Below are positions 5,672 to 51,183 of a DNA stretch of 64,000 nucleotides, piece after piece. Within the stretch, counting starts at the first letter, position 1, and the number at the start of each line of letters is the position of its first letter. The notes below the pieces were generated by a model that searched no databases, was not told where the DNA came from, and saw only the letters and a list, made by a program, of their open reading frames with translations. The position numbers and the translations under genes were made by a program. The stretch comes from an uncultured Gammaproteobacteria bacterium (lineage in GTDB: Bacteria; Patescibacteriota; Patescibacteriia; CAZSQN01). The stretch lies in assembly GCA_964609095.1 (NCBI GenBank), contig CAZSQN010000001.1, positions 214,117-278,116 of the forward strand, read 5' to 3'.

Positions 5672-5675
5672 AAGA

Positions 5676-5750
5676 GGGTACAGGGGACAGGGTAGAGGGT
5701 ATAGTAAATTAAAAAACTAAACCCTAAACCCTAAACCCTAAACCCTAAAA
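5676..5750 (+). repeat. Heptamer-repeat leader element, CCCTAAA class (copy A): GGGTACAGGGGACAGGGTAGAGGGTATAG + spacer + (CCCTAAA)x4, ending ...AAAAATGTG
   Basis: Near-identical copy at 6451-6525; related copies at 39576-39643, 28572-28624 (minus) and 33101-33181 (minus), all abutting start codons. Confidence 0.8.
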
Positions 5751-6450: not shown

Positions 6451-6525
6451 GGTTATAGGGGACAGGGTAGAGGGTATAGTAAATTAAAAAACTAAACCCT
6501 AAACCCTAAACCCTAAACCCTAAAA
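6451..6525 (+). repeat. Heptamer-repeat leader element, CCCTAAA class (copy B), directly upstream of virB4-like
   Basis: GGTTATAGGGGACAGGGTAGAGGGTATAGTAAATTAAAAAACTAAACCCTAAACCCTAAACCCTAAACCCTAAAAATGTG; the in-frame start of the following gene is the GTG overlapping the terminal ATG. Confidence 0.8.
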
Positions 6526-6527
6526 AT

Positions 6528-8438
6528 GTGGCATTTAGACCGCTCCAAATTTTCAAGAAAAAACAGCCGGGGATAGTGGCTCCTGTTTTGGGCGAGGAGG
6601 CGCGCAAGGCGGAAGAAGCCAAAGCCAAATTGGAAAAGATCGCGCTTGAAGAAGAGCGCGTATATCGCCGCGGCGTTGTTTCTATCCGCGATATTATCGC
6701 TCCGGCCTCTCTTAAAGTTGACCCGTCAATGGTAGTTTTAGGCGACAATTATGTCCGCACTCTTTTTGTGCTTACTTATCCGAGATACATTTCCGTGGGC
6801 TGGTTTGCCCCGATATTGAATCTTTCCATGACGCTTGATGTGGGAATGTTTTTTTATCCCGTGCCGGCGGATATTATTTTGAAACAGTTAAAAAATAAAG
6901 TCGGCACATTGGAGGCGCAAATTATTTCTGATTCAGAAAAAGGCGCGCCGCGCGATCCGCTTCGCGAAACCGCGCTCCGCGATGTTGAAAGTTTGCGCGA
7001 TTCCTTAACCCAGGGCACCGAGCACTTCTTCCAATACGCGCTTTATGTGACTCTTTACGCCAAGAGCGCTGAAGAGCTGAACAAGCGCACGGAAGAGATA
7101 GAAACGCTCTTCGGCTCAAAACTTATCTACACTAAACGGACGTACTACCAATCAGAACAGGGTTTTAATTCTACCATTCCTCTTGGCAATGACGAGCTGA
7201 TGATAACCTTTAACATGAATTCATCTCCGATCGCCTCGTCGTTTCCTTTTATGTCGGCGGACCTTACTTCCGACGGGGGAGTGCTTTACGGCATCAATCG
7301 GCATAATAATTCTTTAATTTTATTTGACCGGTTTTCTCTGCAGAACGCCAATATGGTGGTGTTTGCCACTTCCGGCGCGGGCAAAAGCTACGCGGTCAAG
7401 CTGGAAGTTTTGCGGTCATTGATGATGGGAACAGATGTTATTATTATTGACCCGGAGATGGAGTACAAACATCTTTCCGACGCGGTAGGCGGCACTTATA
7501 TTTCCATTTCTTTGGCTTCGGAGAGCAAAATCAATCCTTTTGAACTGCCGCGGCCCGTGGGAGAGCAGATTAGCACGGAAGACATAATCAGAAGCGCGGT
7601 TATCACGGCCAAAGGCCTGCTGCGCATAATGTTTGGCGCCATCACCCCGGAAGAGGATTCCCTTGTAGACCGCGCCTTGCTTGAAACCTATGCCAAAAAA
7701 GACATTACGGCCGCATCTGATTTGACCAAAGTTGAACCGCCGATAATGCAGGATTTCGCGGAAGTGCTTGAAGGAATGGAGGGCACGGCCAATCTTGTTT
7801 TGAAAATTAAAAAATATACCGAAGGAACTTTTGCCGGCTTGTTTAACTCTCCCACCACGGTTGACCTTAAAAATCCTTTCGTTGTGTTTTCCGTGCGCGA
7901 TCTTGAGGATGAACTGCGGCCTATGGCCATTTACGCCATTGTCAATTTTATCTGGAATGTGGTTAGGAGCGAACGGAAAAAGAGAATCCTCGTTATTGAC
8001 GAGGCCTGGTGGCTGATGCAAAACGATGATTCCGCCAAGTTTATTTTCGCGCTGGTCAAGCGCTGCAGAAAATACTATTTGGGCATAACTACCATTACGC
8101 AGGATGTAAACGACTTTTTGCGTTCTCCATACGGCCAGGCCATAGTCACCAATTCTTCAATTCAGATGCTGTTAAAGCAATCGCCCGCGTCAATTGATTT
8201 GGTGCAAAAAACGTTTCTTTTGACCGAAGGGGAAAAGTATCTGCTCTTGGAGAGCGCGGTTGGCGAGGGCATATTTTTTGCCGGACCGCGGCACGCGGCC
8301 ATAAAGGTTGTGGCTTCTTACACCGAAGACCAGCTTATCACCACGGACCCGCGGCAATTATTGGAAATTGAACAAGCAAAGAAAGAATTTGAGGCGCAGT
8401 TAAAGGGCGGCGAACCGGAAGCGCCGGACATTGGATAG
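6528..8438 (+). CDS. virB4: VirB4/TraC-family type IV secretion ATPase
   Basis: Walker A (FATSGAGKSY) and Walker B (ILVIDEAWWLM) motifs, ~636 aa, typical VirB4 N-terminal region; GTG start overlapping the ATG of the upstream element. Confidence 0.8.
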   Translation: MAFRPLQIFKKKQPGIVAPVLGEEARKAEEAKAKLEKIALEEERVYRRGVVSIRDIIAPASLKVDPSMVVLGDNYVRTLFVLTYPRYISVGWFAPILNLSMTLDVGMFFYPVPADIILKQLKNKVGTLEAQIISDSEKGAPRDPLRETALRDVESLRDSLTQGTEHFFQYALYVTLYAKSAEELNKRTEEIETLFGSKLIYTKRTYYQSEQGFNSTIPLGNDELMITFNMNSSPIASSFPFMSADLTSDGGVLYGINRHNNSLILFDRFSLQNANMVVFATSGAGKSYAVKLEVLRSLMMGTDVIIIDPEMEYKHLSDAVGGTYISISLASESKINPFELPRPVGEQISTEDIIRSAVITAKGLLRIMFGAITPEEDSLVDRALLETYAKKDITAASDLTKVEPPIMQDFAEVLEGMEGTANLVLKIKKYTEGTFAGLFNSPTTVDLKNPFVVFSVRDLEDELRPMAIYAIVNFIWNVVRSERKKRILVIDEAWWLMQNDDSAKFIFALVKRCRKYYLGITTITQDVNDFLRSPYGQAIVTNSSIQMLLKQSPASIDLVQKTFLLTEGEKYLLLESAVGEGIFFAGPRHAAIKVVASYTEDQLITTDPRQLLEIEQAKKEFEAQLKGGEPEAPDIG

Positions 8439-8515
8439 AATCTGGAATATGGAATCTGGAATTTAGAAAAGAAAATTCTAAATTCTAAATTCTAAATTCT
8501 AAATTCAGTTCTACC
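8439..8515 (+). repeat. Heptamer-repeat leader element, ATTCTAA class: imperfect (GGAATNT)n arm + aagaaa + (ATTCTAA)x4, ending 8 nt before the ATG at 8516
   Basis: Arms are imperfect reverse complements; same architecture as the CCCTAAA class; related copy at 42981-43059. Confidence 0.75.
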
Positions 8516-25187: not shown

Positions 25188-26546
25188 TTATTTCAATATC
25201 TCCAGAGCTTCAGTGACGGAGTTGATTTGGATTAAGGATTCGGACGATTCAAGTTTCGCGGCTTTGGGCACGAGCGCGTATTTGAATCCGAGTTTTTGCG
25301 CTTCGCGCACCCGGCGTTCAATTTCTTTTACCGGACGGATTTCGCCGGAGAGGCCGACCTCGCCTATAGCAGTCATATCTTTGGGAAAGGGTCTGCCTAT
25401 ATAAGCGGAAGCGATTGAAGCAAGAATGCCGAGATCGGCGGCTGGCTCGCGTATTTTAAGTCCGCCGCCAACATTCACATGCACGTCGGTATGGTCTAAA
25501 TACAAGCCGGCGCGACGGGAAAGCACGGCTAAAATCAAGTCCAATTTTTTGGGGTCAATTCCGGAGGCGCGCCTTTGCGGATATCCCCAAGATGTCTTGT
25601 GAGTTAAGGCCTGGATTTCCGCCAAAAGCGGCCGTGTGCCCTCAAGGAGCACGGTAATCACAGAGCCGGGAATGGCTGTTTTTCTTTCTTGTATAAAAAG
25701 AGCCGAGGGATTGGGCACTTCCATAAATCCGTTTTCAGTATGATTAAAAATGCCGACTTCGTCTGTCGCGCCAAACCTGTTTTTGCTTGCGCGGAGCACT
25801 CTGAAGGAATGTTGAGAATCGCCTTCAAGAGTAAGTACGACATCAACCAAGTGTTCCAGCGATTTTGGTCCGGCAACCAGCCCGTCTTTTCTGACTTGAC
25901 CCACCAGAATTATCGGAAGATTATTTTGTTTTGCGGTTTCGGTTAAAATGCTTACGGCCGCGCGAATTTCTCTCGGCGAGCCGCTTTTGCCGCCCTCTGC
26001 CCGTAAGGTGTTTACGGAATCAATGATAGAAAGCGCCGGGCGTTCTTTGGCAATGGTGGCGGCGATAGAGGCGGCGTCGGTTTCATTAAGAAAAAGCACG
26101 GAGGAGCCGATGGCGTTAATTCTCGCGAATCTGGAATAAATTTGTTCGGCTGATTCTTCGCCGGAAGTATAGAGCACCGGCCCTGATTTTTTGGCAATCG
26201 TTCCGCACACTTGCGCGAGAAGCGTGGATTTGCCTATGCCCGGTTCTCCGGAGAGGAGTATCACGCTTCCGGCCGCGATTCCTCCGTCCAACACGCGGTC
26301 AAATTCGTTAATGCCGGTTTTTATGCGCGGGGATTTGGGTAAGGATATCTCTTGGAGGGATATTGGTTTTAAGGCAGGGACTGTTGAATTTGGAATTTGG
26401 AATTTGGAATTTGATATTTTAGATTCCATATTCAAGATTCTAGATTCTGATAAAGATCCCCATTCGCCGCATTCAAAACAACGCCCAGCCCACTTTGGGG
26501 TCTGCGCGTCGCATTTGGAACAGACATAAACAATGCTCGATTTCAT
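25188..26546 (-). CDS. radA: DNA repair protein RadA/Sms, carrying an in-frame heptamer-repeat insertion in the zinc-finger/ATPase linker
   Basis: C4 zinc ribbon CSKCDAQ...CFECGEW, Walker A GEPGIGKSTLL, Lon-like C-terminus. Residues ESRILNMESKISNSKFQIPNS are encoded by the repeat at 26386-26452. Confidence 0.85.
   Translation of the reverse strand: MKSSIVYVCSKCDAQTPKWAGRCFECGEWGSLSESRILNMESKISNSKFQIPNSTVPALKPISLQEISLPKSPRIKTGINEFDRVLDGGIAAGSVILLSGEPGIGKSTLLAQVCGTIAKKSGPVLYTSGEESAEQIYSRFARINAIGSSVLFLNETDAASIAATIAKERPALSIIDSVNTLRAEGGKSGSPREIRAAVSILTETAKQNNLPIILVGQVRKDGLVAGPKSLEHLVDVVLTLEGDSQHSFRVLRASKNRFGATDEVGIFNHTENGFMEVPNPSALFIQERKTAIPGSVITVLLEGTRPLLAEIQALTHKTSWGYPQRRASGIDPKKLDLILAVLSRRAGLYLDHTDVHVNVGGGLKIREPAADLGILASIASAYIGRPFPKDMTAIGEVGLSGEIRPVKEIERRVREAQKLGFKYALVPKAAKLESSESLIQINSVTEALEILK
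26386..26452. repeat. Heptamer-repeat hairpin element (GAATTTG/AGATTCT arms) inside the radA coding sequence
   Basis: gaatttggaatttggaatttggaatttgatattttagattccatattcaagattctagattctg; same architecture as the intergenic leader elements; translated in frame. Confidence 0.7.
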
Positions 26547-27917: not shown

Positions 27918-28571
27918 TTATTTTAATGCTTCAGAGAGCGCGGCTTGGAGCGCCTCGCGATTGATAACTCCGGAGAAGCGCTGGCCGTTTAAGAAAAAAT
28001 ACGGCACCCCGTTAATTCGCAGGCGCAAGCCTTCTTCAAAAGTTCTGTCAATTAAAGGAGCGGTAAAATCGCCGCCAAGGCAGGCGAGAAAGTTTTGGCC
28101 GTTTAAGCCGAGGGCGTCGGCAATGCCGCTTAATTCCGCTTCGCGCGGGAGATTGGGCGCATTCATTAACGCGTCATGGTATTCCCAGAATTTTCCGGCG
28201 CGTCCGGCGCAGCGGGCAGCTTCGGATGCTTCGCGGCTTCCGGGATTCATCTGCTCAATGGGAAAATCTTTCCAGACGATTCTTACCTCTCCGGGGTGGG
28301 CAAGGAGAAATTCTTTAAGAACATTTTCCGCTTCTTTGCAATGCGAGCAGCCAAAGTCGCCGAATTCAACAATTAAAAGTTTTGCCGTGGCGGCTCCGCG
28401 CGCCGGATCCGCTATGGTAACTTGCGGCGCGGAAAGAGGAGGCAGGTCCTCGGCTTTTTTAGCCGTTTTATCAACCGGCTTGGGAGGCAGGGCATTGGCG
28501 GCAAGGAGAGTGATGGAAAAGACGCCAATCAAACCAAGCGGAAGAAGAATCCAGAGATGGTTTTTGTTCAT
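27918..28571 (-). CDS. DsbA-like thiol:disulfide oxidoreductase (thioredoxin fold)
   Basis: Signal peptide plus CSHC (CxxC) active-site motif within FGDFGCSHCKEA. Confidence 0.7.
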   Translation of the reverse strand: MNKNHLWILLPLGLIGVFSITLLAANALPPKPVDKTAKKAEDLPPLSAPQVTIADPARGAATAKLLIVEFGDFGCSHCKEAENVLKEFLLAHPGEVRIVWKDFPIEQMNPGSREASEAARCAGRAGKFWEYHDALMNAPNLPREAELSGIADALGLNGQNFLACLGGDFTAPLIDRTFEEGLRLRINGVPYFFLNGQRFSGVINREALQAALSEALK

Positions 28572-28624
28572 AGGGTTTAAGGTTTAGGGTTTAGGGTCTT
28601 TTATACCCTGTACCCTGACCCATC
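28572..28624 (-). repeat. Heptamer-repeat leader element, CCCTAAA class (copy D, minus orientation), between the TolB-like stop and the dsbA-like start
   Basis: Minus strand reads GGGTCAGGGTACAGGGTATAAAAGACCCTAAACCCTAAACCTTAAACCCT-ATG. Confidence 0.75.
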
Positions 28625-28630
28625 TATCCT

Positions 28631-29839
28631 TTATTGCAATTTTATTCTATGCACGGCCTGCGTGCCGGTGTCGGTGAAATACAGCAGACGCTCGTTTTTG
28701 GAAACAATCAATTTATTGATGGAATAAGCGCCTTCCGGTTCGGCAATAAGCTGGTTCGCGCCCGTCTCTAAGTCAAGCCGGTAGATTAAATCCGCCGTAT
28801 CTGCCGAAAGCGAGGGTTGGAAGCCGATTCCTTCCGGCATTGTTTTAGGCACGGCGCAATAAATAATATTTTCATCGGCAAAAGCGCATTTATCGGCCCA
28901 AGTTGAAAGATTAAAACTGCGGCGTCCGGCGCCGATTTCGTCGCCCGAGGCAAGAGCCGTCCAAAGCTGCGGCCTGTAGCCGGTTGCTCCCGAATGGGTG
29001 CTCCAAAGCAGGCGTCTTCCGGAAGGCGACCAGAGCGGACGGAAATCCAGCCCGGCCGTCTCCAATCCCTTAAAATTTTCTCCATTCAAGCCGATAAGCA
29101 AAATTTCATTTCGGCTTAATCCAAGTTCGCGTCCGGTATCTGAAAAGGCAACAACTTGGTTGTTCGGCGACCAGCTGATTTTTACTTTATTGGCATTGTC
29201 GCCCAGCGGCTCTAAGACCCTGGCGTTTGAACCGTCGGCATCCACCGTCACCAGCCAGCGGTTTTCCGCGTCAATTCCCAAACTTTTTCCCACGATTTTT
29301 CCCCCGTCGGGAGAAAAATCAAAGTCCTCCCAGTGCTTGGGAAGCGTGACTGATTTTTCTGCTTCAAAATCGTAGACGATGTTGGAGCCGTCGGGAAATT
29401 CAATAACCGCGCGTTTGCCGTCTTTTGCCCATAGAACATTTTGGACGTTAAGAAAAGTTTTGCCGGAGAGTTCCACGGCCGTGCCGTCTTCGCGCAAACG
29501 GATGAATTTGCCGGACGAGCGGTCATAGGAAAGGAGCGTGGAACCGTCAGAAGAAATCGTCGTCCCGATTGTCGGCGCGGAAACAACGACAGAGGCGGCG
29601 GTAAGCCCCCCCCGCGCCACTGCGGACGGAGCGCCGCTTGGCGCGCCCAATCTTTCGGGCGGCCTTGGCGCTCCGGGCGCGGCCGGCGCTAATCCAGGTC
29701 TCGCGACGGGCCTTGCTCCGGGCGCAACTTCTTCAGGCGCCCGCCCTAAAGGCCTAAAAAATAAATAATAAATTCCAAAACCAAAACCAAAAGTTATAAA
29801 GGCAAAAAGCGCGATAATCAAAATTTTTCTTAGGTTCAT
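28631..29839 (-). CDS. Periplasmic beta-propeller protein (TolB-like, WD40/PD40-type repeats)
   Basis: Repeated WSP(N/S)G... blades and an N-terminal TM/signal; start at ATG 29839 (MNLRK) or GTG 29848. Confidence 0.55.
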   Translation of the reverse strand: MNLRKILIIALFAFITFGFGFGIYYLFFRPLGRAPEEVAPGARPVARPGLAPAAPGAPRPPERLGAPSGAPSAVARGGLTAASVVVSAPTIGTTISSDGSTLLSYDRSSGKFIRLREDGTAVELSGKTFLNVQNVLWAKDGKRAVIEFPDGSNIVYDFEAEKSVTLPKHWEDFDFSPDGGKIVGKSLGIDAENRWLVTVDADGSNARVLEPLGDNANKVKISWSPNNQVVAFSDTGRELGLSRNEILLIGLNGENFKGLETAGLDFRPLWSPSGRRLLWSTHSGATGYRPQLWTALASGDEIGAGRRSFNLSTWADKCAFADENIIYCAVPKTMPEGIGFQPSLSADTADLIYRLDLETGANQLIAEPEGAYSINKLIVSKNERLLYFTDTGTQAVHRIKLQ

Positions 29840-29841
29840 AT

Positions 29842-29957
29842 CCCGCACATAATTTGCTTAATACAACACATAATTTATGTTATGCGCTGTGATGGATAAA
29901 CAAATTATATTTTTTTTTAATCAGATAAACGTAAAACATAAGCAAATTATGTGCGGG
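29842..29957. repeat. Perfect 19-bp inverted repeat (cccgcacataatttgctta ... taagcaaattatgtgcggg) separated by 78 nt, immediately upstream of the TolB-like start
   Basis: Seen directly; the arms are exact reverse complements. Confidence 0.8.
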
Positions 29958-33100: not shown

Positions 33101-33181
33101 TGTTTTGAGGGTATAGGGTTTAGCGTTTAGGGTTTAGGGAAATTCACTAAACGCTATACGCTAACCGCTAAACGCTTTGGT
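33101..33181 (-). repeat. Heptamer-repeat leader element (copy E; GCGTTTA-type arm + CCCTAAA-type arm), filling the entire htpX-stop to clpC-start spacer
   Basis: Minus strand: TAA-ACCAAAGCGTTTAGCGGTTAGCGTATAGCGTTTAGTGAATTTCCCTAAACCCTAAACGCTAAACCCTATACCCTCAAAACA-ATG. Confidence 0.75.
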
Positions 33182-35811: not shown

Positions 35812-35890
35812 TATGCTTACGATCAAGCTCTTTTGGGCGACCGAAATAGGTTCGGTTACCCTCAAAAACCAACAAAAGAAAGGCAGAACA

Positions 35891-36301
35891 ATGGACAAGA
35901 TAGTTCTTTCTCTCCCGACCGATCTCATCTACGACAAGCGCAAGGACGGCTGGACGCTTCTGGAAGATGCACCTTTGGTCGGCACGCCCATCCTGGAGCT
36001 CGCCGAGTTCCTCCGTGACAGCGAATCGTACGTGAACGGCGAGGTCATGCTTTCCCGAGCCAAGGAGCTCGGCAACCTGGCTGGTCAGCGCCACGCCGAG
36101 CGGATGCTCGCTTGTGCCAGTCAGATTCCCGAGAGTTGGCGAAGCTTCTACCTCGTCTTCCCCGGAACGGTCTGGCGGGGTGGGAGCGGCGGCCGCGGCG
36201 TTCCGTACCTCGACTGGGGCGGCGACGGGTGGAGCCTGTACTGGGATTGGCTTGGCCGCGACTGGTACGGGGACGGTCGCGTCGTCCGTCTCAGCAAGTA
36301 G
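35891..36301 (+). CDS. DGR target (variable) protein; the C-terminal ~43 aa are encoded by the variable repeat
   Basis: 137 aa from MDKIVLS. The C-terminus ...TVWRGGSGGRGVPYLDWGGDGWSLYWDWLGRDWYGDGRVVRLSK aligns with the TR-encoded ...LVWRDGSGNRNVPYLNWNGDKWNLNWNWLDNDWNRNNRVVRLGN. The GC-rich, A-depleted 3' end is expected after adenine mutagenesis. Confidence 0.7.
   Translation: MDKIVLSLPTDLIYDKRKDGWTLLEDAPLVGTPILELAEFLRDSESYVNGEVMLSRAKELGNLAGQRHAERMLACASQIPESWRSFYLVFPGTVWRGGSGGRGVPYLDWGGDGWSLYWDWLGRDWYGDGRVVRLSK
36169..36297 (+). repeat. DGR variable repeat (VR)
   Basis: Pairs with 36650-36778; differs only at positions where the TR has A. Confidence 0.8.
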
Positions 36302-36363
36302 CTGAACCTTGGGATCTTGAATCCTTGCCACGCTTGGATCCTTGATCCCTTGAAACCTTGGTC

Positions 36364-36649: not shown

Positions 36650-36778
36650 GGTCTGGCGGGATGGGAGCGGCAACCGCAACGTTCCGTACCTCAACTGGAA
36701 CGGCGACAAGTGGAACCTGAACTGGAATTGGCTTGACAACGACTGGAACAGGAACAATCGCGTCGTCCGTCTCGGCAA
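36650..36778 (+). repeat. DGR template repeat (TR), AAC-codon rich
   Basis: Invariant template; TR adenines correspond to the variable VR positions. The spurious ORFs 36624..36929 (+) and 36552..36920 (-) are its translations. Confidence 0.8.
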
Positions 36779-36789
36779 CTCGCTTCGTT

Positions 36790-36815
36790 CTCCTCCGACA
36801 ACCGTCGGAGGAGTT
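36790..36815. terminator. 10-bp hairpin ctcctccgac-aacc-gtcggaggag + T-run directly after the TR and abutting the avd stop; bidirectional terminator or DGR RNA 3' structure
   Basis: Seen directly. Confidence 0.5.
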
Positions 36816-37222
36816 TATTTTTGGAGCCCCTTTATCCATCCTCCAAGCATTTTGCCGATTTCGTTTAAATGCTCCGAAAGCATAATGTATTTTTTGTTGT
36901 CTATATTTTTTAGCTCCCAAGCGATCTGAAGAAAGAATTTTAGCAAATTCAATTTTCCGCTTGCCTTATACAACAACGGCAATTTTTGTTCTTTGCTTAA
37001 AGAGCCGGAGATGAACAAGAGTTCTAAAATATCAAGAAAACAAAGTTCAATTTTTGTTCCCAGCGCGTATTTTGATTTTTTAGGAAGATGATTTTTAAAT
37101 TCATCCCAAAGCTTATATACCGAGACAAATCTTTGGATTATCGGTAGTGTGTGTGTGTGTGTGTGTGTGTGTGGAAGCTTTTTCTCTGATTCGTTTATAT
37201 TATGAAAATCCAATTGAGCCAT
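36815..37222 (-). CDS. avd: Avd-like accessory variability determinant (four-helix-bundle protein), encoded divergently to the RT. The N-terminal region contains a (HT)n stretch encoded by the (GT)13 microsatellite
   Basis: C-terminal EHLNEIGKMLGGWIKGLQK and internal KSKYALGTKIELCFLDILELL match the four-helix-bundle/Avd family as I recall it. 135 aa from the ATG at 37222, which overlaps the RT start by 21 nt on the other strand. Confidence 0.55.
   Translation of the reverse strand: MAQLDFHNINESEKKLPHTHTHTHTLPIIQRFVSVYKLWDEFKNHLPKKSKYALGTKIELCFLDILELLFISGSLSKEQKLPLLYKASGKLNLLKFFLQIAWELKNIDNKKYIMLSEHLNEIGKMLGGWIKGLQK
37147..37172. repeat. (GT)13 dinucleotide microsatellite
   Basis: tgtgtgtgtgtgtgtgtgtgtgtgtg, 30 nt upstream of the RT start codon and inside the avd 5' coding region. 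Confidence 0.95.
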
Positions 37223-38224
37223 AAGTTTGAAGATATAATTAGTATTGATAATCTGTTGGAAGCCTGGAAAGAGTTTGCGAAAGGGAAGAAGGGCAAGCGT
37301 GATGTTCAGGAGTTTTCTTTTCGTTTGATGGATAACATTCTGGCTTTAAACGCCGAACTTTTTAATCATACCTATTGCCATGGCGGGTATCAAGCATTTA
37401 ACATTTCCGACCCCAAGCCGAGGAATATCCATAAAGCCAGCGTGAGAGACCGTCTTTTGCACCATGCCATTTACAGAATTTTATATCCTTTTTTTGATAA
37501 AACCTTTATCAGCGATTCTTATTCGTGCCGGATTGATAAGGGAACGCACAAGGCCTTAAACCGTTTCCGTTCATTCGCTTATAAAGCCGGCAGAAACAAG
37601 ACCGGAACCTGTTGGGTATTAAAGTGCGATATCAGGAAGTTCTTTGCCAATATTAACCATGAGATTTTGCTAAACATCCTTAAGAGCTATATTCCGGACA
37701 AAGATATTCTATGGCTGCTCAATGAGATTATAGGGAGTTTTCATTCTTTCTCGCATGGTATTGGATTGCCGCTCGGCAACCTTACCTCCCAACTGCTTGT
37801 TAATATCTATATGAATGAGTTTGACCAGTTCGCGAAGCATAAGCTCAAAGTCAAATACTATATCCGCTATGCCGATGATTTTGCGATTTTGTCTCCAAAC
37901 AAGAGGGAGCTTGAAGAGTTGGTGTCTCAAATCGCTTTGTTTTTGGGCGAACGGCTAAAACTAACTCTTCATCCAAACAAGACCTTTATTAAAACTTTGG
38001 CTTCGGGCGTTGATTTTCTGGGTTGGGTGCATTTTAGCGACCATAGAGTGCTCCGAACCGCGACTAAGAGGAGGGTGATTGCCATGCTGAGGGAACACCC
38101 GGCTAAAGAAACCCGAGCTTCGTATCTCGGATTATTGAGTCATGGGAATACGAATCTCATTAAAGCAAAGATTTTGGATAAAAGAGATTTTTTGGACTTT
38201 ACGACTGATTTTATAGTAAAGTAA
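37202..38224 (+). CDS. DGR-type reverse transcriptase
   Basis: RT motifs including LPLGNLTSQ (the DGR-typical LGxxxSQ) and YADDF (YxDD); ~340 aa, no maturase/endonuclease extension; adjacent to the TR. Confidence 0.8.
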   Translation: MKIQLSHKFEDIISIDNLLEAWKEFAKGKKGKRDVQEFSFRLMDNILALNAELFNHTYCHGGYQAFNISDPKPRNIHKASVRDRLLHHAIYRILYPFFDKTFISDSYSCRIDKGTHKALNRFRSFAYKAGRNKTGTCWVLKCDIRKFFANINHEILLNILKSYIPDKDILWLLNEIIGSFHSFSHGIGLPLGNLTSQLLVNIYMNEFDQFAKHKLKVKYYIRYADDFAILSPNKRELEELVSQIALFLGERLKLTLHPNKTFIKTLASGVDFLGWVHFSDHRVLRTATKRRVIAMLREHPAKETRASYLGLLSHGNTNLIKAKILDKRDFLDFTTDFIVK

Positions 38225-38230
38225 AAAGGT

Positions 38231-39583
38231 ATGAAATTCCCTGTTTCCATATTTAAGGCCTACGACATAAGAGGCGAGTCGCCGGGCGAGATTACTTCAG
38301 AATTTGCCGAGCGGTTAGGCCGGGCGTTTCCTCATTTTACGGACGCCAAAACGGTTGTGGTTGGCCGCGACGCGCGCAAGACATCGCCGGAATTGGCAGA
38401 CGCGCTTATAAAAGGAATAATCTCGCAGGGCGTGGATGTGATTGATATTGGTATGGTTTCCACTCCCATGTTTTATTTTGCGGTCGGTGAATACGAGCTA
38501 CATGATGCCGGCATTATGGTGACGGCCTCGCATAATCCGGCAAAGTACAACGGGTTCAAGCTGGTGCGCGGTGACGCTTTTCCCATAGGCGCCAATTCCG
38601 GAATGTATGAGTTGCGGGATTTGGTCACCTCCGACGCCGAATTTCCGAACCAAAAAATCGGGAATGTTGTGGAGACGGATATTTCCGAAGCGTATTTGGA
38701 AAAGATTTTTTCTTTGGTTGATCCGGAGACATTAAAACAATTTAATTTGGCAATTGATAACGGCAACGGCATGGGCGGCGTTATCCTGCCGCGCTTGCTT
38801 AAAGCCATACCCGGATGGAACTCAGTTTTGTATATGGAGCCGGACGGCAATTTTCCAAACCACGAGGCCAATCCTTTGAAAGAAGAAACCCTTGACGATC
38901 TAAAAAAATTGATAAAAGAAAAAAAATCCGATCTGGGCGCGGCTTTTGACGGAGACGCTGACAGAATAGGATTTGTTGACGAGAACGGAGCAATCGTGTC
39001 TGGAGATTTGATTACCGGCATACTGGCGGCGCGAATTTTGGAAGAGCATCCCGGCAGTCCCGTCCTCTACGATGTTCGTTCCAGCTGGGCGACCAAAGAA
39101 GCGATTCTCGTGGCTGGCGGAAAGCCAATAATGTGTCCAGTGGGACACGCGCTGGTTAAAAAGATGCTCCGCGATACCGGCGCGGCCTTTGGCGGAGAAG
39201 TATCCATGCATTATTACTTCCGTGATTTTTACAATGGAATGGAGTCGTCTGACCTCGCGTTTTTGATTTTGCTTTCCATTTTAACTGATGCGGGCAAAAC
39301 GCTTTCCGAACTTGTCGCGCCGCATCGGAAATATTTCCATTCCGGGGAAATAAATTTTAAAGTGGAAGACAAAGAAGGAAAGTTTAAGGAGATTGAGGAA
39401 AAATATAAAAGCGGCGCCAAAGAGATTATCCGCATTGACGGAATACGAATGGAATTTAACGATTGGTGGCTTAATTTGCGCGCGTCCAATACCGAACCGC
39501 TGATGCGGCTCAATTTGGAGGCAAAATCAGAAAGCAAGATGCGTGAAATGAAAGAGGAAATAAGCAATTTATTAAGGGTATAG
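38231..39583 (+). CDS. Phosphoglucomutase/phosphomannomutase family protein
   Basis: Active-site TASHNP(A) (phosphoserine loop), Mg-binding DGDADR, ~450 aa. Confidence 0.75.
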   Translation: MKFPVSIFKAYDIRGESPGEITSEFAERLGRAFPHFTDAKTVVVGRDARKTSPELADALIKGIISQGVDVIDIGMVSTPMFYFAVGEYELHDAGIMVTASHNPAKYNGFKLVRGDAFPIGANSGMYELRDLVTSDAEFPNQKIGNVVETDISEAYLEKIFSLVDPETLKQFNLAIDNGNGMGGVILPRLLKAIPGWNSVLYMEPDGNFPNHEANPLKEETLDDLKKLIKEKKSDLGAAFDGDADRIGFVDENGAIVSGDLITGILAARILEEHPGSPVLYDVRSSWATKEAILVAGGKPIMCPVGHALVKKMLRDTGAAFGGEVSMHYYFRDFYNGMESSDLAFLILLSILTDAGKTLSELVAPHRKYFHSGEINFKVEDKEGKFKEIEEKYKSGAKEIIRIDGIRMEFNDWWLNLRASNTEPLMRLNLEAKSESKMREMKEEISNLLRV

Positions 39584-39643
39584 GGGATAGGGTAGAGGGT
39601 ATAGAAACTACTAAACCCTAAACCCTAAACCCTAAACCCTAAA
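39576..39643 (+). repeat. Heptamer-repeat leader element, CCCTAAA class (copy C), overlapping the PGM stop codon and ending at the murI ATG
   Basis: GGGTATAGGGGATAGGGTAGAGGGTATAGAAACTACTAAACCCTAAACCCTAAACCCTAAATTG-ATG. Confidence 0.8.
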
Positions 39644-42980: not shown

Positions 42981-43059
42981 TGAATTTGGAATCTGGAATC
43001 TTGAATTTTGATTTAATTAAATTCTAGATTCTAATTTCTAAATTCTAGATTCTTGAAAG
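42981..43059 (+). repeat. Heptamer-repeat leader element, ATTCTAA/GGAATNT class, upstream of pheT
   Basis: gaatttggaatctggaatcttgaattttgatttaattaaattctagattctaatttctaaattctagattcttgaaag-ATG. Confidence 0.75.
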
Positions 43060-51099: not shown

Positions 51100-51183
51100 A
51101 GCTTGTAGCTTTTAGCTGTTAGCTTTTAGTTGTTTTGGTTTATTTCTATCAGTTAAAAGCTAAAAGCTAAAAGCTTTTTTATT
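51100..51183 (+). repeat. Heptamer-repeat leader element, AAAAGCT class, upstream of thrS
   Basis: gagcttgtagcttttagctgttagcttttag...ttaaaagctaaaagctaaaagctttttt-att-ATG; arms are complementary. Confidence 0.75.

Follow-up and report, generated by a model that had tools for sequence, protein, structure and literature searches.

Within the stretch of DNA analysed here (64,000 nucleotides, positions 214,117 to 278,116 of contig CAZSQN010000001.1, assembly GCA_964609095.1; hereafter the window) lies a diversity-generating retroelement (DGR) whose accessory gene avd carries a pure dinucleotide tract at its 5′ end, between the start codon and the part encoding the folded protein. We propose, at a probability of roughly 0.6, that this tract turns Avd on and off by slipped-strand mispairing and thereby gates DGR mutagenesis. 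Under this proposal, translation would begin at an ATG antisense to codon 7 of the DGR reverse transcriptase (RT), pass through a short unstructured leader and then enter the tract, and the ribosome would continue into Avd only if the length of the tract puts leader and core in one reading frame. Slipped-strand mispairing during replication would add or remove repeat units, giving a heritable, reversible and stochastic switching of Avd between ON and OFF, presumably at a high rate within populations. According to the main text of Wu et al. 2018 (PMC5758913), both Avd and the RT are required for complementary DNA synthesis in the DGR of a Bordetella phage; as Avd is required there, together with the RT, for mutagenic retrohoming, a switch of Avd would therefore gate diversification, with one subpopulation diversifying the target protein and the rest keeping the current variant. 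The leader ATG and the open leader would be kept for the ON state and the pure repeat for switching, and different lineages could use different repeats, since only mutability would matter. A phase-variable switch had been suggested in an earlier reading of this DNA from its letters (the original prediction). That idea gains from five observations set out below, namely a repeat at the same site clade-wide, a leader that appears to be translated, a variable phase, intact cores without a start, and length polymorphism; the (GT)n form on which it was built turned out to be a minority form, the common one being a G/C homopolymer.

Judged by its anatomy, the region at 35.8-38.2 kb of the window is a complete canonical DGR. 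It comprises the following features, among them a template repeat (TR), a variable repeat (VR) and the open reading frames (ORFs) of target, Avd and RT:

35813..36301, plus strand: DGR target gene, longest ORF 162 aa (136 aa as called in the source record), with the VR at its C-terminus
36169..36303, plus strand: VR, a 135-nt direct repeat of the TR at 82% identity
36650..36784, plus strand: TR, with 33 adenines, of which 21 are altered in the VR
36790..36813, plus strand: terminator-like GC-rich hairpin and T-run, directly after the TR and abutting the stop codon at the 3′ end of avd
36815..37147, minus strand: Avd core, codons 26-135 and stop codon, a four-helix bundle according to Pfam, NCBIfam, phmmer, AlphaFold and Foldseek
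37147..37173: simple-sequence tract, (GT)13.5 on the plus strand and (CA)13 plus C in avd sense, the proposed slippage switch
37174..37222, minus strand: avd leader, codons 1-16 and the first base of codon 17, non-conserved and predicted to be disordered
37220..37222, minus strand: avd start codon ATG, antisense of RT codon 7 (CAT, His)
37202..38224, plus strand: DGR reverse transcriptase, 340 aa, Pfam RVT_1

The avd ORF (36815-37222, minus strand) encodes 135 aa, begins MAQLDFHNINESEKKLPHTHTHTHTLPIIQ and has its ATG within the 21 nt (37202-37222) that it shares with the RT ORF. Tandem Repeats Finder describes the tract at 37147-37173 as a repeat of period 2 with 13.5 copies and 100% matches. 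It is unique in the 64-kb window, where the observed count was reached in 0 of 100 shuffles and where the sole other G/C or dinucleotide run is a single C8 run. In avd sense, (CA)13 covers codons 17-25 of 135, of which codons 18-25 read HTHTHTHT, i.e. (His-Thr)4, and on the other side the tract ends 28 nt ahead of the RT ATG. Past the tract, the avd frame holds no ATG, GTG or TTG before the TTG at codon 69, deep inside the fold, and the only near-cognate in-frame codons near the tract are ATA (codon 28) and ATC (codon 29). When the gain or loss of one or two GT units was simulated, a stop codon appeared 2-11 codons past the tract in each case. The window thus has a pure repeat of unstable length in the 5′ part of an ORF, in which changes of one unit shift the frame; its avd allele reads as ON, a fused ORF of 135 codons, and one GT unit more or less would turn it OFF. 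On these anatomical points the original prediction was accurate: it had described a (GT)13 tract read as His-Thr repeats near the Avd N-terminus (which extends to (GT)13.5), an Avd-like gene encoded divergently between TR and RT with a 21-nt overlap of the RT start (confirmed by the coordinates and by the family matches below), the lack of an alternative in-frame start downstream, the frame shift upon gain or loss of one unit, and a distance of 30 nt to the RT ATG, measured here as 28 nt.

The family matches and the structural model agree on where the conserved protein begins. Against NCBIfam DivGenRetAVD (NF033474) the Avd ORF scores 78.8 bits, just below the cut-off of 80; the alignment pairs residues 26-131 with positions 1-104, the full length of the profile. 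Against Pfam bAvd (PF22296) it reaches 52.2 bits (cut-off 40), and against the Avd of the Bordetella phage (4DWL) phmmer returned an E-value of 0.0097, both matches starting in helix 1. An AlphaFold model built with 51 homologues places four helices at residues 27-43, 48-73, 77-103 and 109-134, with a predicted local distance difference test (pLDDT) score of 84.9 overall, above 90 for most of the core and below 50 for residues 1-23. The best Foldseek matches of this model in the PDB are Avd chains, 4DWL (template modelling (TM) score 0.88, root-mean-square deviation 1.5 Å) and 8UB7, within a TM range of 0.8-0.88. Because both the profiles and the model place the conserved protein directly after the tract, residues 1-25, including the His-Thr repeat, are best described as a predicted disordered leader outside the fold. 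The avd of phage BPP-1 is co-directional, lies upstream of the TR and has an ordinary start codon. The window protein resembles BPP-1 Avd (4DWL; RT-Avd-RNA complexes 8UB7-8UBE) in being a four-helix bundle encoded next to a DGR RT and a TR, and differs from it by the 25-residue disordered, repeat-bearing leader ahead of the fold.

A repeat at this site is a property of the lineage and not of the window alone. The comparison started from 80 loci of other species, all from metagenome-assembled genomes (MAGs) of the candidate phyla radiation (CPR), with RTs 63-73% identical to that of the window; to these were added contigs encoding identical Avd or RT proteins, 120 metagenome contigs fetched by a leader-plus-C8 pattern, and the window itself. 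Pooling gave 176 junctions with an Avd core, of which 174 have a tract, corresponding to 149 non-redundant tract-bearing loci; the two junctions with no tract are L006 and L044. In avd sense, the tract is poly-C in 141 of the 149 loci, (CA)n in seven and (CT)n in one. The poly-C tracts are 6-14 nt long, with C9 in 51 loci and C10 in 47. The median spacing of the tracts is 9 nt to the first core codon, which follows in avd sense, and 18 nt to the RT start. Comparable repeats occurred only twice in the 420 kb of DNA flanking the 72 genome loci. Among the best 120 Avd protein clusters, an in-frame His-Thr repeat precedes the core in 23 and an in-frame PPP in 37; the window thereby belongs to a populated (CA)n subgroup, and its tract is among the longest of that subgroup. 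In loci L182 and L218 the C9 tract is directly followed by an A9 tract at the avd 5′ end.

No interrupted C-runs were seen among the tracts, the positions beside them carry at most 0.6 bit each, and CCC makes up only 31% of the proline codons elsewhere in Avd. Since the runs are pure, the flanks low in information and CCC a minority proline codon, the conserved feature appears to be the pure, slippage-prone run as such, as opposed to a binding motif or a polyproline stretch. A sequence-specific binding site at the tract was accordingly rejected for want of a conserved adjoining motif at that limit of 0.6 bit per position, and polyproline as the selected feature was rejected too, given that pure C is used despite the minority status of CCC and that (CA)n and (CT)n occur at the same site.

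The leader between the RT start and the tract shows the constraints expected of a translated sequence. An ATG antisense to RT codon 7 is present in 115 non-redundant loci, and in 113 of these the frame of that ATG contains no stop between the RT start and the tract, the other two frames being open in only 87 and 30 of the 115. Counted as stops, the ATG frame holds 11 and the other frames 30 and 122; all 11 fall in two insertion-bearing loci, L014 and L085, outside which the ATG frame has zero stops in ~640 intergenic codons. Residue 7 of the RT is histidine in 119 of 145 RTs, encoded by CAT in 118 and by CAC in one, compared with 59% CAT at the other histidine codons of the same RTs (p ~1e-25; this and the p-values below treat loci as independent). 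This choice of CAT over CAC indicates that the antisense ATG is under selection at the nucleotide level. In addition, when leader and core are in frame, the fused avd ORF is annotated by gene callers and in the source record. Taken together, the open ATG frame, the CAT bias and the annotated fusions argue that the leader is translated from the ATG antisense to RT codon 7 into the tract.

The insertion in L014 and L085 is AT-rich, ~130 nt long and located between the RT start and a (CA)n tract, where it breaks the leader frame. In L014 it contributes an ATG that is in frame and lies 93 nt ahead of the core; in L085 an in-frame start is lacking. The insertion could represent a small element that is mobile or carries a promoter.

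The position of the tract also raises the question of whether it works as nucleic acid, influencing RT expression or the DGR RNA as a G-rich RT leader, as Z-DNA in the case of (GT)n or as a triplex for G or GA runs. The tract does sit close upstream of the RT ATG at the median distance given above, all its variants are G-rich on the RT strand, and the divergent, overlapping starts of avd and RT mean that promoters must sit in or near this region. Such an element would not explain why the antisense ATG is selected and the leader kept open, and no single structure is common to the different repeat chemistries. A consensus scan found no sigma-70-like hexamers beside the tract in the window, and the loci have no conserved flanking motif. 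An Rfam scan of the window returned only three tRNAs, all outside the DGR region. We therefore regard this reading as improbable; the original prediction had likewise placed the tract in the RT leader, and no evidence of an action there was found.

If leader and tract are translated as proposed for the Avd switch, the reading phase between leader and core becomes the decisive variable, and it varies. Leader ATG and core share a frame in 21 of 113 loci (~19%), with phases 0/+1/+2 represented by 21/62/30 loci; in the genome set these numbers are 4/21/20 and in the metagenome set 16/38/9. The 149 loci can be grouped by the start codons available to the core:

37 of 149 loci: ATG upstream of the tract, in frame
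6 of 149 loci: GTG or TTG upstream of the tract, in frame
49 of 149 loci: sole start codon at the first core codon or adjacent to it
57 of 149 loci: no ATG, GTG or TTG in frame before the core

Of this last class 53 members are complete, and in 52 of these the core ORF has remained intact, with a length of at least 95 codons. By analogy with known phase-variable genes, an intact ORF cut off from its start by an unstable repeat is the classical signature of such a gene in its OFF state, and in these alleles the DGR would be expected to be inactive.

Relatives that lack the repeat are organised differently. Five loci on viral contigs (L226, L227 and L229-L231; RT 49-60% identical) have the same divergent avd-RT layout and no repeat, and in them the Avd ATG lies 4-7 codons before a conserved P-I-(I/F). 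An in-frame ATG is likewise present in L006 and L044, the two CPR loci lacking a tract. All seven repeat-less loci thus have an in-frame start, compared with ~29% of the repeat-bearing ones, and leader plus repeat appear to be a derived feature, inserted between start codon and protein.

Tract length differs between near-identical contigs. The comparison was made within lineages represented by at least two contigs whose 45+45-nt flanks differ by no more than 5 nt, and 15 lineages were informative. With identical flanks, (CA)10 in L083 stands against (CA)15 in L084, C10 in L095-L099 against C11 in L100, and C8 (out of frame) in L052 against C9 (in frame) in L185; with near-identical flanks, L009 has C9 and L164 has C8. 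Among more distant relatives with homologous flanks, C14 in L036 compares with C9 in L056. Contigs picked on an identical tract-containing Avd ORF (P0068) are uninformative on length by construction.

As side observations, six of 87 metagenome contigs (L119, L139, L142, L189, L202 and L215) end no more than 25 nt from the tract, and in scaffold L033 a run of N abuts it. Such ends fit either length heterogeneity or difficulty in sequencing, and are a weak indication of either. They bear on the suspicion that the tract has no function, being a neutral mutational by-product or an assembly artefact, with the frame variation as noise: homopolymers are error-prone in sequencing, and both contig ends and a gap fall at the tract. 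Set against this are the occurrence of a repeat at one and the same site in 149 non-redundant loci from many studies and assemblers versus two in the 420 kb of flanks, the purity of the runs, the strong constraints on the leader, and the repeat-less relatives with their plain in-frame ATG. We consider this explanation very improbable.

Several results weigh against the Avd switch. The original prediction had called for tract lengths to be counted across related genomes; they differ in four lineages as described, and in the other 11 of the 15 informative lineages a single consensus length was found, e.g. G12 in five contigs, G10 in six and G9 in two. Tract lengths were identical within each of the RT clusters P0123, P0188 and P0187. 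Some of the constant-length lineages may be repeat samplings of one population. No second sequence was retrieved for the window's own locus, the polymorphism being seen in four homologous lineages. Most consensus alleles are out of frame, which fits a costly system that is mostly OFF but might also be a sign that the functional form is something other than the in-frame fusion. In-frame loci make up less than one third (binomial p ~4e-4); after coarse thinning to 21 phylogenetic clusters their share is still 19% and significance is lost, so that the depletion is suggestive. At the first core codon, TTG accounts for 53 of 108 leucine codons (49%), compared with 17.8% elsewhere in Avd (p ~1e-13), and in about one third of the loci Avd may start after the tract, with no simple frame fusion. 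Finally, the consensus scan of the window locus found neither a promoter nor a Shine-Dalgarno sequence for the leader ATG, the only decent minus-strand promoter candidate lying within the RT gene, at a distance of ~145 nt upstream of the avd ATG.

The enrichment of TTG is the starting point for the most serious alternative, in which leader and tract form a phase-variable upstream ORF that works as a “volume control”: Avd would start just after the tract at TTG, ATG or GTG, and tract length would tune initiation by occlusion or coupling. Besides the TTG bias and the 49 loci whose only start is at or next to core codon 1, this idea draws on L036 and L056, which have an ATG at core codon 1 and nevertheless carry C14 and C9 tracts, on the under-representation of in-frame fusions, and on the short distance between tract and core, in which GG-containing gaps could serve as a weak ribosome-binding site. 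It cannot work in the window, where the first core codon (37145-37147) is CTA and no canonical start occurs before codon 69, and it does not account for the 57 loci lacking any canonical start. Fused in-frame forms also appear in gene calls and in 60 of the best 120 protein clusters. Leader stops are scattered from -13 to ~+200 nt relative to the core start, a scatter for which a termination-reinitiation coupling of the leader to the TTG start was rejected. All in all, a control of this kind seems unlikely for the clade, if less so than the other alternatives.

The predominance of out-of-frame alleles with intact cores could also be explained by programmed recoding, i.e. +1 slippage of tRNA-Pro on CCC-C with polyproline stalling, or stuttering of the RNA polymerase, through which out-of-frame alleles would constitutively give a low, set amount of Avd, the changes of tract length in the DNA being then incidental. 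Poly-C encodes proline in all frames, and phase +1 is the commonest both overall (62 of 113) and whichever class of non-tract length is considered. Against this, the phase varies, as the taxonomically broader genome set in particular illustrates, no conserved stop or stimulator follows the tract, and only 15 of the 62 phase +1 leaders stop before the core. Furthermore, (CA)n and (CT)n tracts are not +1-slippery, and the window ORF is simply in frame. Transcriptional slippage prefers A/T runs. A fixed-phase programmed +1 frameshift site was rejected outright on account of the variable phase, the inconsistent stops and the dinucleotide variants, and recoding in general appears to us a doubtful explanation, somewhat less probable than the upstream ORF.

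The Avd switch proposed here has close counterparts among known systems. Translational phase variation at contingency loci is exemplified by the poly-G tracts of ~G8-G13 in Campylobacter jejuni, the poly-G of hmbR and hpuA in Neisseria and the tetranucleotides of the lic and mod genes in Haemophilus. The avd loci share with these a pure mono- or dinucleotide repeat just after the start, of unstable length (with a homopolymer mode of 9-10) and with a frame shift upon a change of one unit, all three phases among the consensus alleles, intact downstream ORFs, and, in four lineages, differences in length between near-identical contigs. They differ in that the gated gene encodes an accessory factor of a target-hypermutating retroelement and not a surface, restriction-modification or receptor protein, that the hosts are uncultivated CPR bacteria, that the type of repeat varies by lineage at a fixed site and that the leader, encoded on the other strand, shares DNA with the RT start.

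Repeats can also act through promoters, such as poly-C in the fim promoters of Bordetella pertussis and (TA)n in the divergent hifA/hifB promoter of Haemophilus influenzae. The avd tract is like these in lying in a short region between divergent genes and in including C homopolymers. Promoter repeats alter promoter spacing, whereas the avd tract lies inside an ORF with an open upstream part and a selected ATG, and is not flanked by promoter hexamers. A third comparison concerns phasevarions, in which phase-variable mod methyltransferases control regulons, and the repeat-mediated on/off switching of mismatch-repair genes. There, as in the proposed avd switch, a stochastic repeat switch stands above a system with wide consequences and could serve bet-hedging; the avd switch, in contrast, would sit above the targeted adenine mutagenesis of the ligand-binding region of one protein, and not above methylation or the genome-wide mutation rate.

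The orientation of avd, by comparison, is ordinary for the lineage and already known. In the main text of Wu et al. 2018 (PMC5758913), architecture B3, TR-(avd)-RT with avd on the reverse strand, is reported for 90% of CPR DGRs, and the window conforms to it with a target gene carrying a VR, a TR, a reverse-strand avd and an RT in a CPR host. Those of the 80 related genome loci that have upstream sequence all carry the Avd core on the opposite strand, with its first codon within tens of nt of the RT start. The original prediction had taken the divergent avd to be unusual, which had to be given up. As presented in its main text, that survey (PMC5758913) gives gene order only, to which the tract is an addition; the same main text, the supplements being outside our search, does not contain the word “homopolymer” and uses “frameshift” or “frame shift” only for indels between TR and VR. 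Our literature searches returned no description of a repeat in or near avd or of phase-variable control of DGRs, in agreement with what the original prediction had surmised; the main paper on CPR DGRs, Paul et al. 2017 (Nat Microbiol), was outside their scope and could hold a prior mention. DGRs and phase variation by repeats are each well known; it is their combination, near-universal in a large clade, that appears to be new.

A more general proposition, to which we give even odds, is that most CPR DGRs are two-layer variation circuits, in which a hypermutable repeat reversibly toggles Avd and with it the whole adenine-mutagenesis machinery, so that episymbiont populations would hedge between freezing and re-diversifying a variant of a surface protein; a leaky basal level might arise by ribosomal or transcriptional slippage in the poly-C loci, and selection would then act on switching as such. 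Uncontrolled diversification should be costly, as it destroys working variants. If the proposal is correct, the avd repeat would regulate targeted hypermutation in a simple way that is both heritable and reversible, with a mutable site placed in control of a second mutational system. From the phase of the tract in metagenomic reads one could then predict whether a population is currently diversifying, which would make the ecology of DGR activity testable without cultivation in the CPR, which hold a large share of the known DGRs.

The same anatomy has consequences for annotation. About 70% of these avd genes have no in-frame start upstream of the tract and ~40% have no canonical start, and they are therefore truncated or missed by gene callers. 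The automatic annotation of these avd genes is unreliable even when sequences are the same: loci L241-L245 share identical junction DNA (110 nt upstream of the RT start and its first 24 nt) with L240 (Giovannonibacteria, CP066687.1), and Avd (135 aa) was called only in the NCBI record L240, being missed in the five Logan assemblies L241-L245, where spurious plus-strand ORFs were called instead.

The remaining parts of the window DGR support its identification. The VR spans the last codons of the target ORF 35813-36301, for which zero Pfam or NCBIfam matches were obtained. Of the 135 positions of TR and VR, 24 are mismatched, and 21 of these mismatches fall on adenines of the TR (18 A>G, 2 A>T and 1 A>C), which is the adenine-specific pattern characteristic of a DGR pair. 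The three differences at other bases are grouped at 36774-36781, at the 3′ end of the repeat, which we take to be the expected place of the difference between the initiation of mutagenic homing sequence (IMH) and IMH*. The RT ORF matches Pfam RVT_1 (E 1.8e-25), adjoins this TR/VR pair and contains LGNLTSQ and YADD in its translation; the motifs [I/L]GxxxSQ and YxDD are diagnostic of DGR-type RTs. In the NCBIfam scan the matches of the RT to group II intron RTs and other RT families were all far under their cut-offs, a DGR-specific RT profile not being among those used. The hairpin at 36790-36813, found in the consensus scan, has a 10-bp stem with 7 GC pairs and is followed by TTTATTTTTG. It is a putative terminator of the TR transcript, in which case the RT would not be co-transcribed with the TR and would depend on a separate promoter within or beyond avd.

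The exact RT and Avd proteins of the window were retrieved together on one contig, JACOZF010000007.1, from the CPR MAG GCA_016181485.1 (Candidatus Uhrbacteria); the protein table lists the RT on two contigs, of which one was retrieved. A 23-nt pattern of flank plus tract taken from the window had zero matches in the metagenome collection. The same MAG contains a second DGR (L248, JACOZF010000009.1, 11642-15646) with the same layout and an RT 80% identical to that of the window. Its Avd, of 137 aa, begins at the antisense ATG and reads in frame across a C10 tract (MAQLNFHNTNNVPPPRLLPLLQ), and both DGRs of this MAG would thus be read as being in the ON phase.

Elsewhere in the window, the C8 run at 29606-29613 is the only other G/C homopolymer of at least 7 nt. 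It lies inside an ORF of 405 aa (28631-29848, minus strand) with a weak match to PD40 beta-propeller repeats, and could be a further length-variable site. The intergenic regions of the window contain many arrays of 7-bp tandem repeats (5675-5749, 6492-6524, 8438-8506, 26386-26448, 28571-28597, 33108-33176, 39575-39643, 42982-43053 and 51100-51175), often as two arrays in roughly inverted orientation. Several of these are telomere-like, with (CCCTAAA)n opposite (AGGGTAT/AGGGTTT)n, and the paired arrays could form long imperfect intergenic hairpins.

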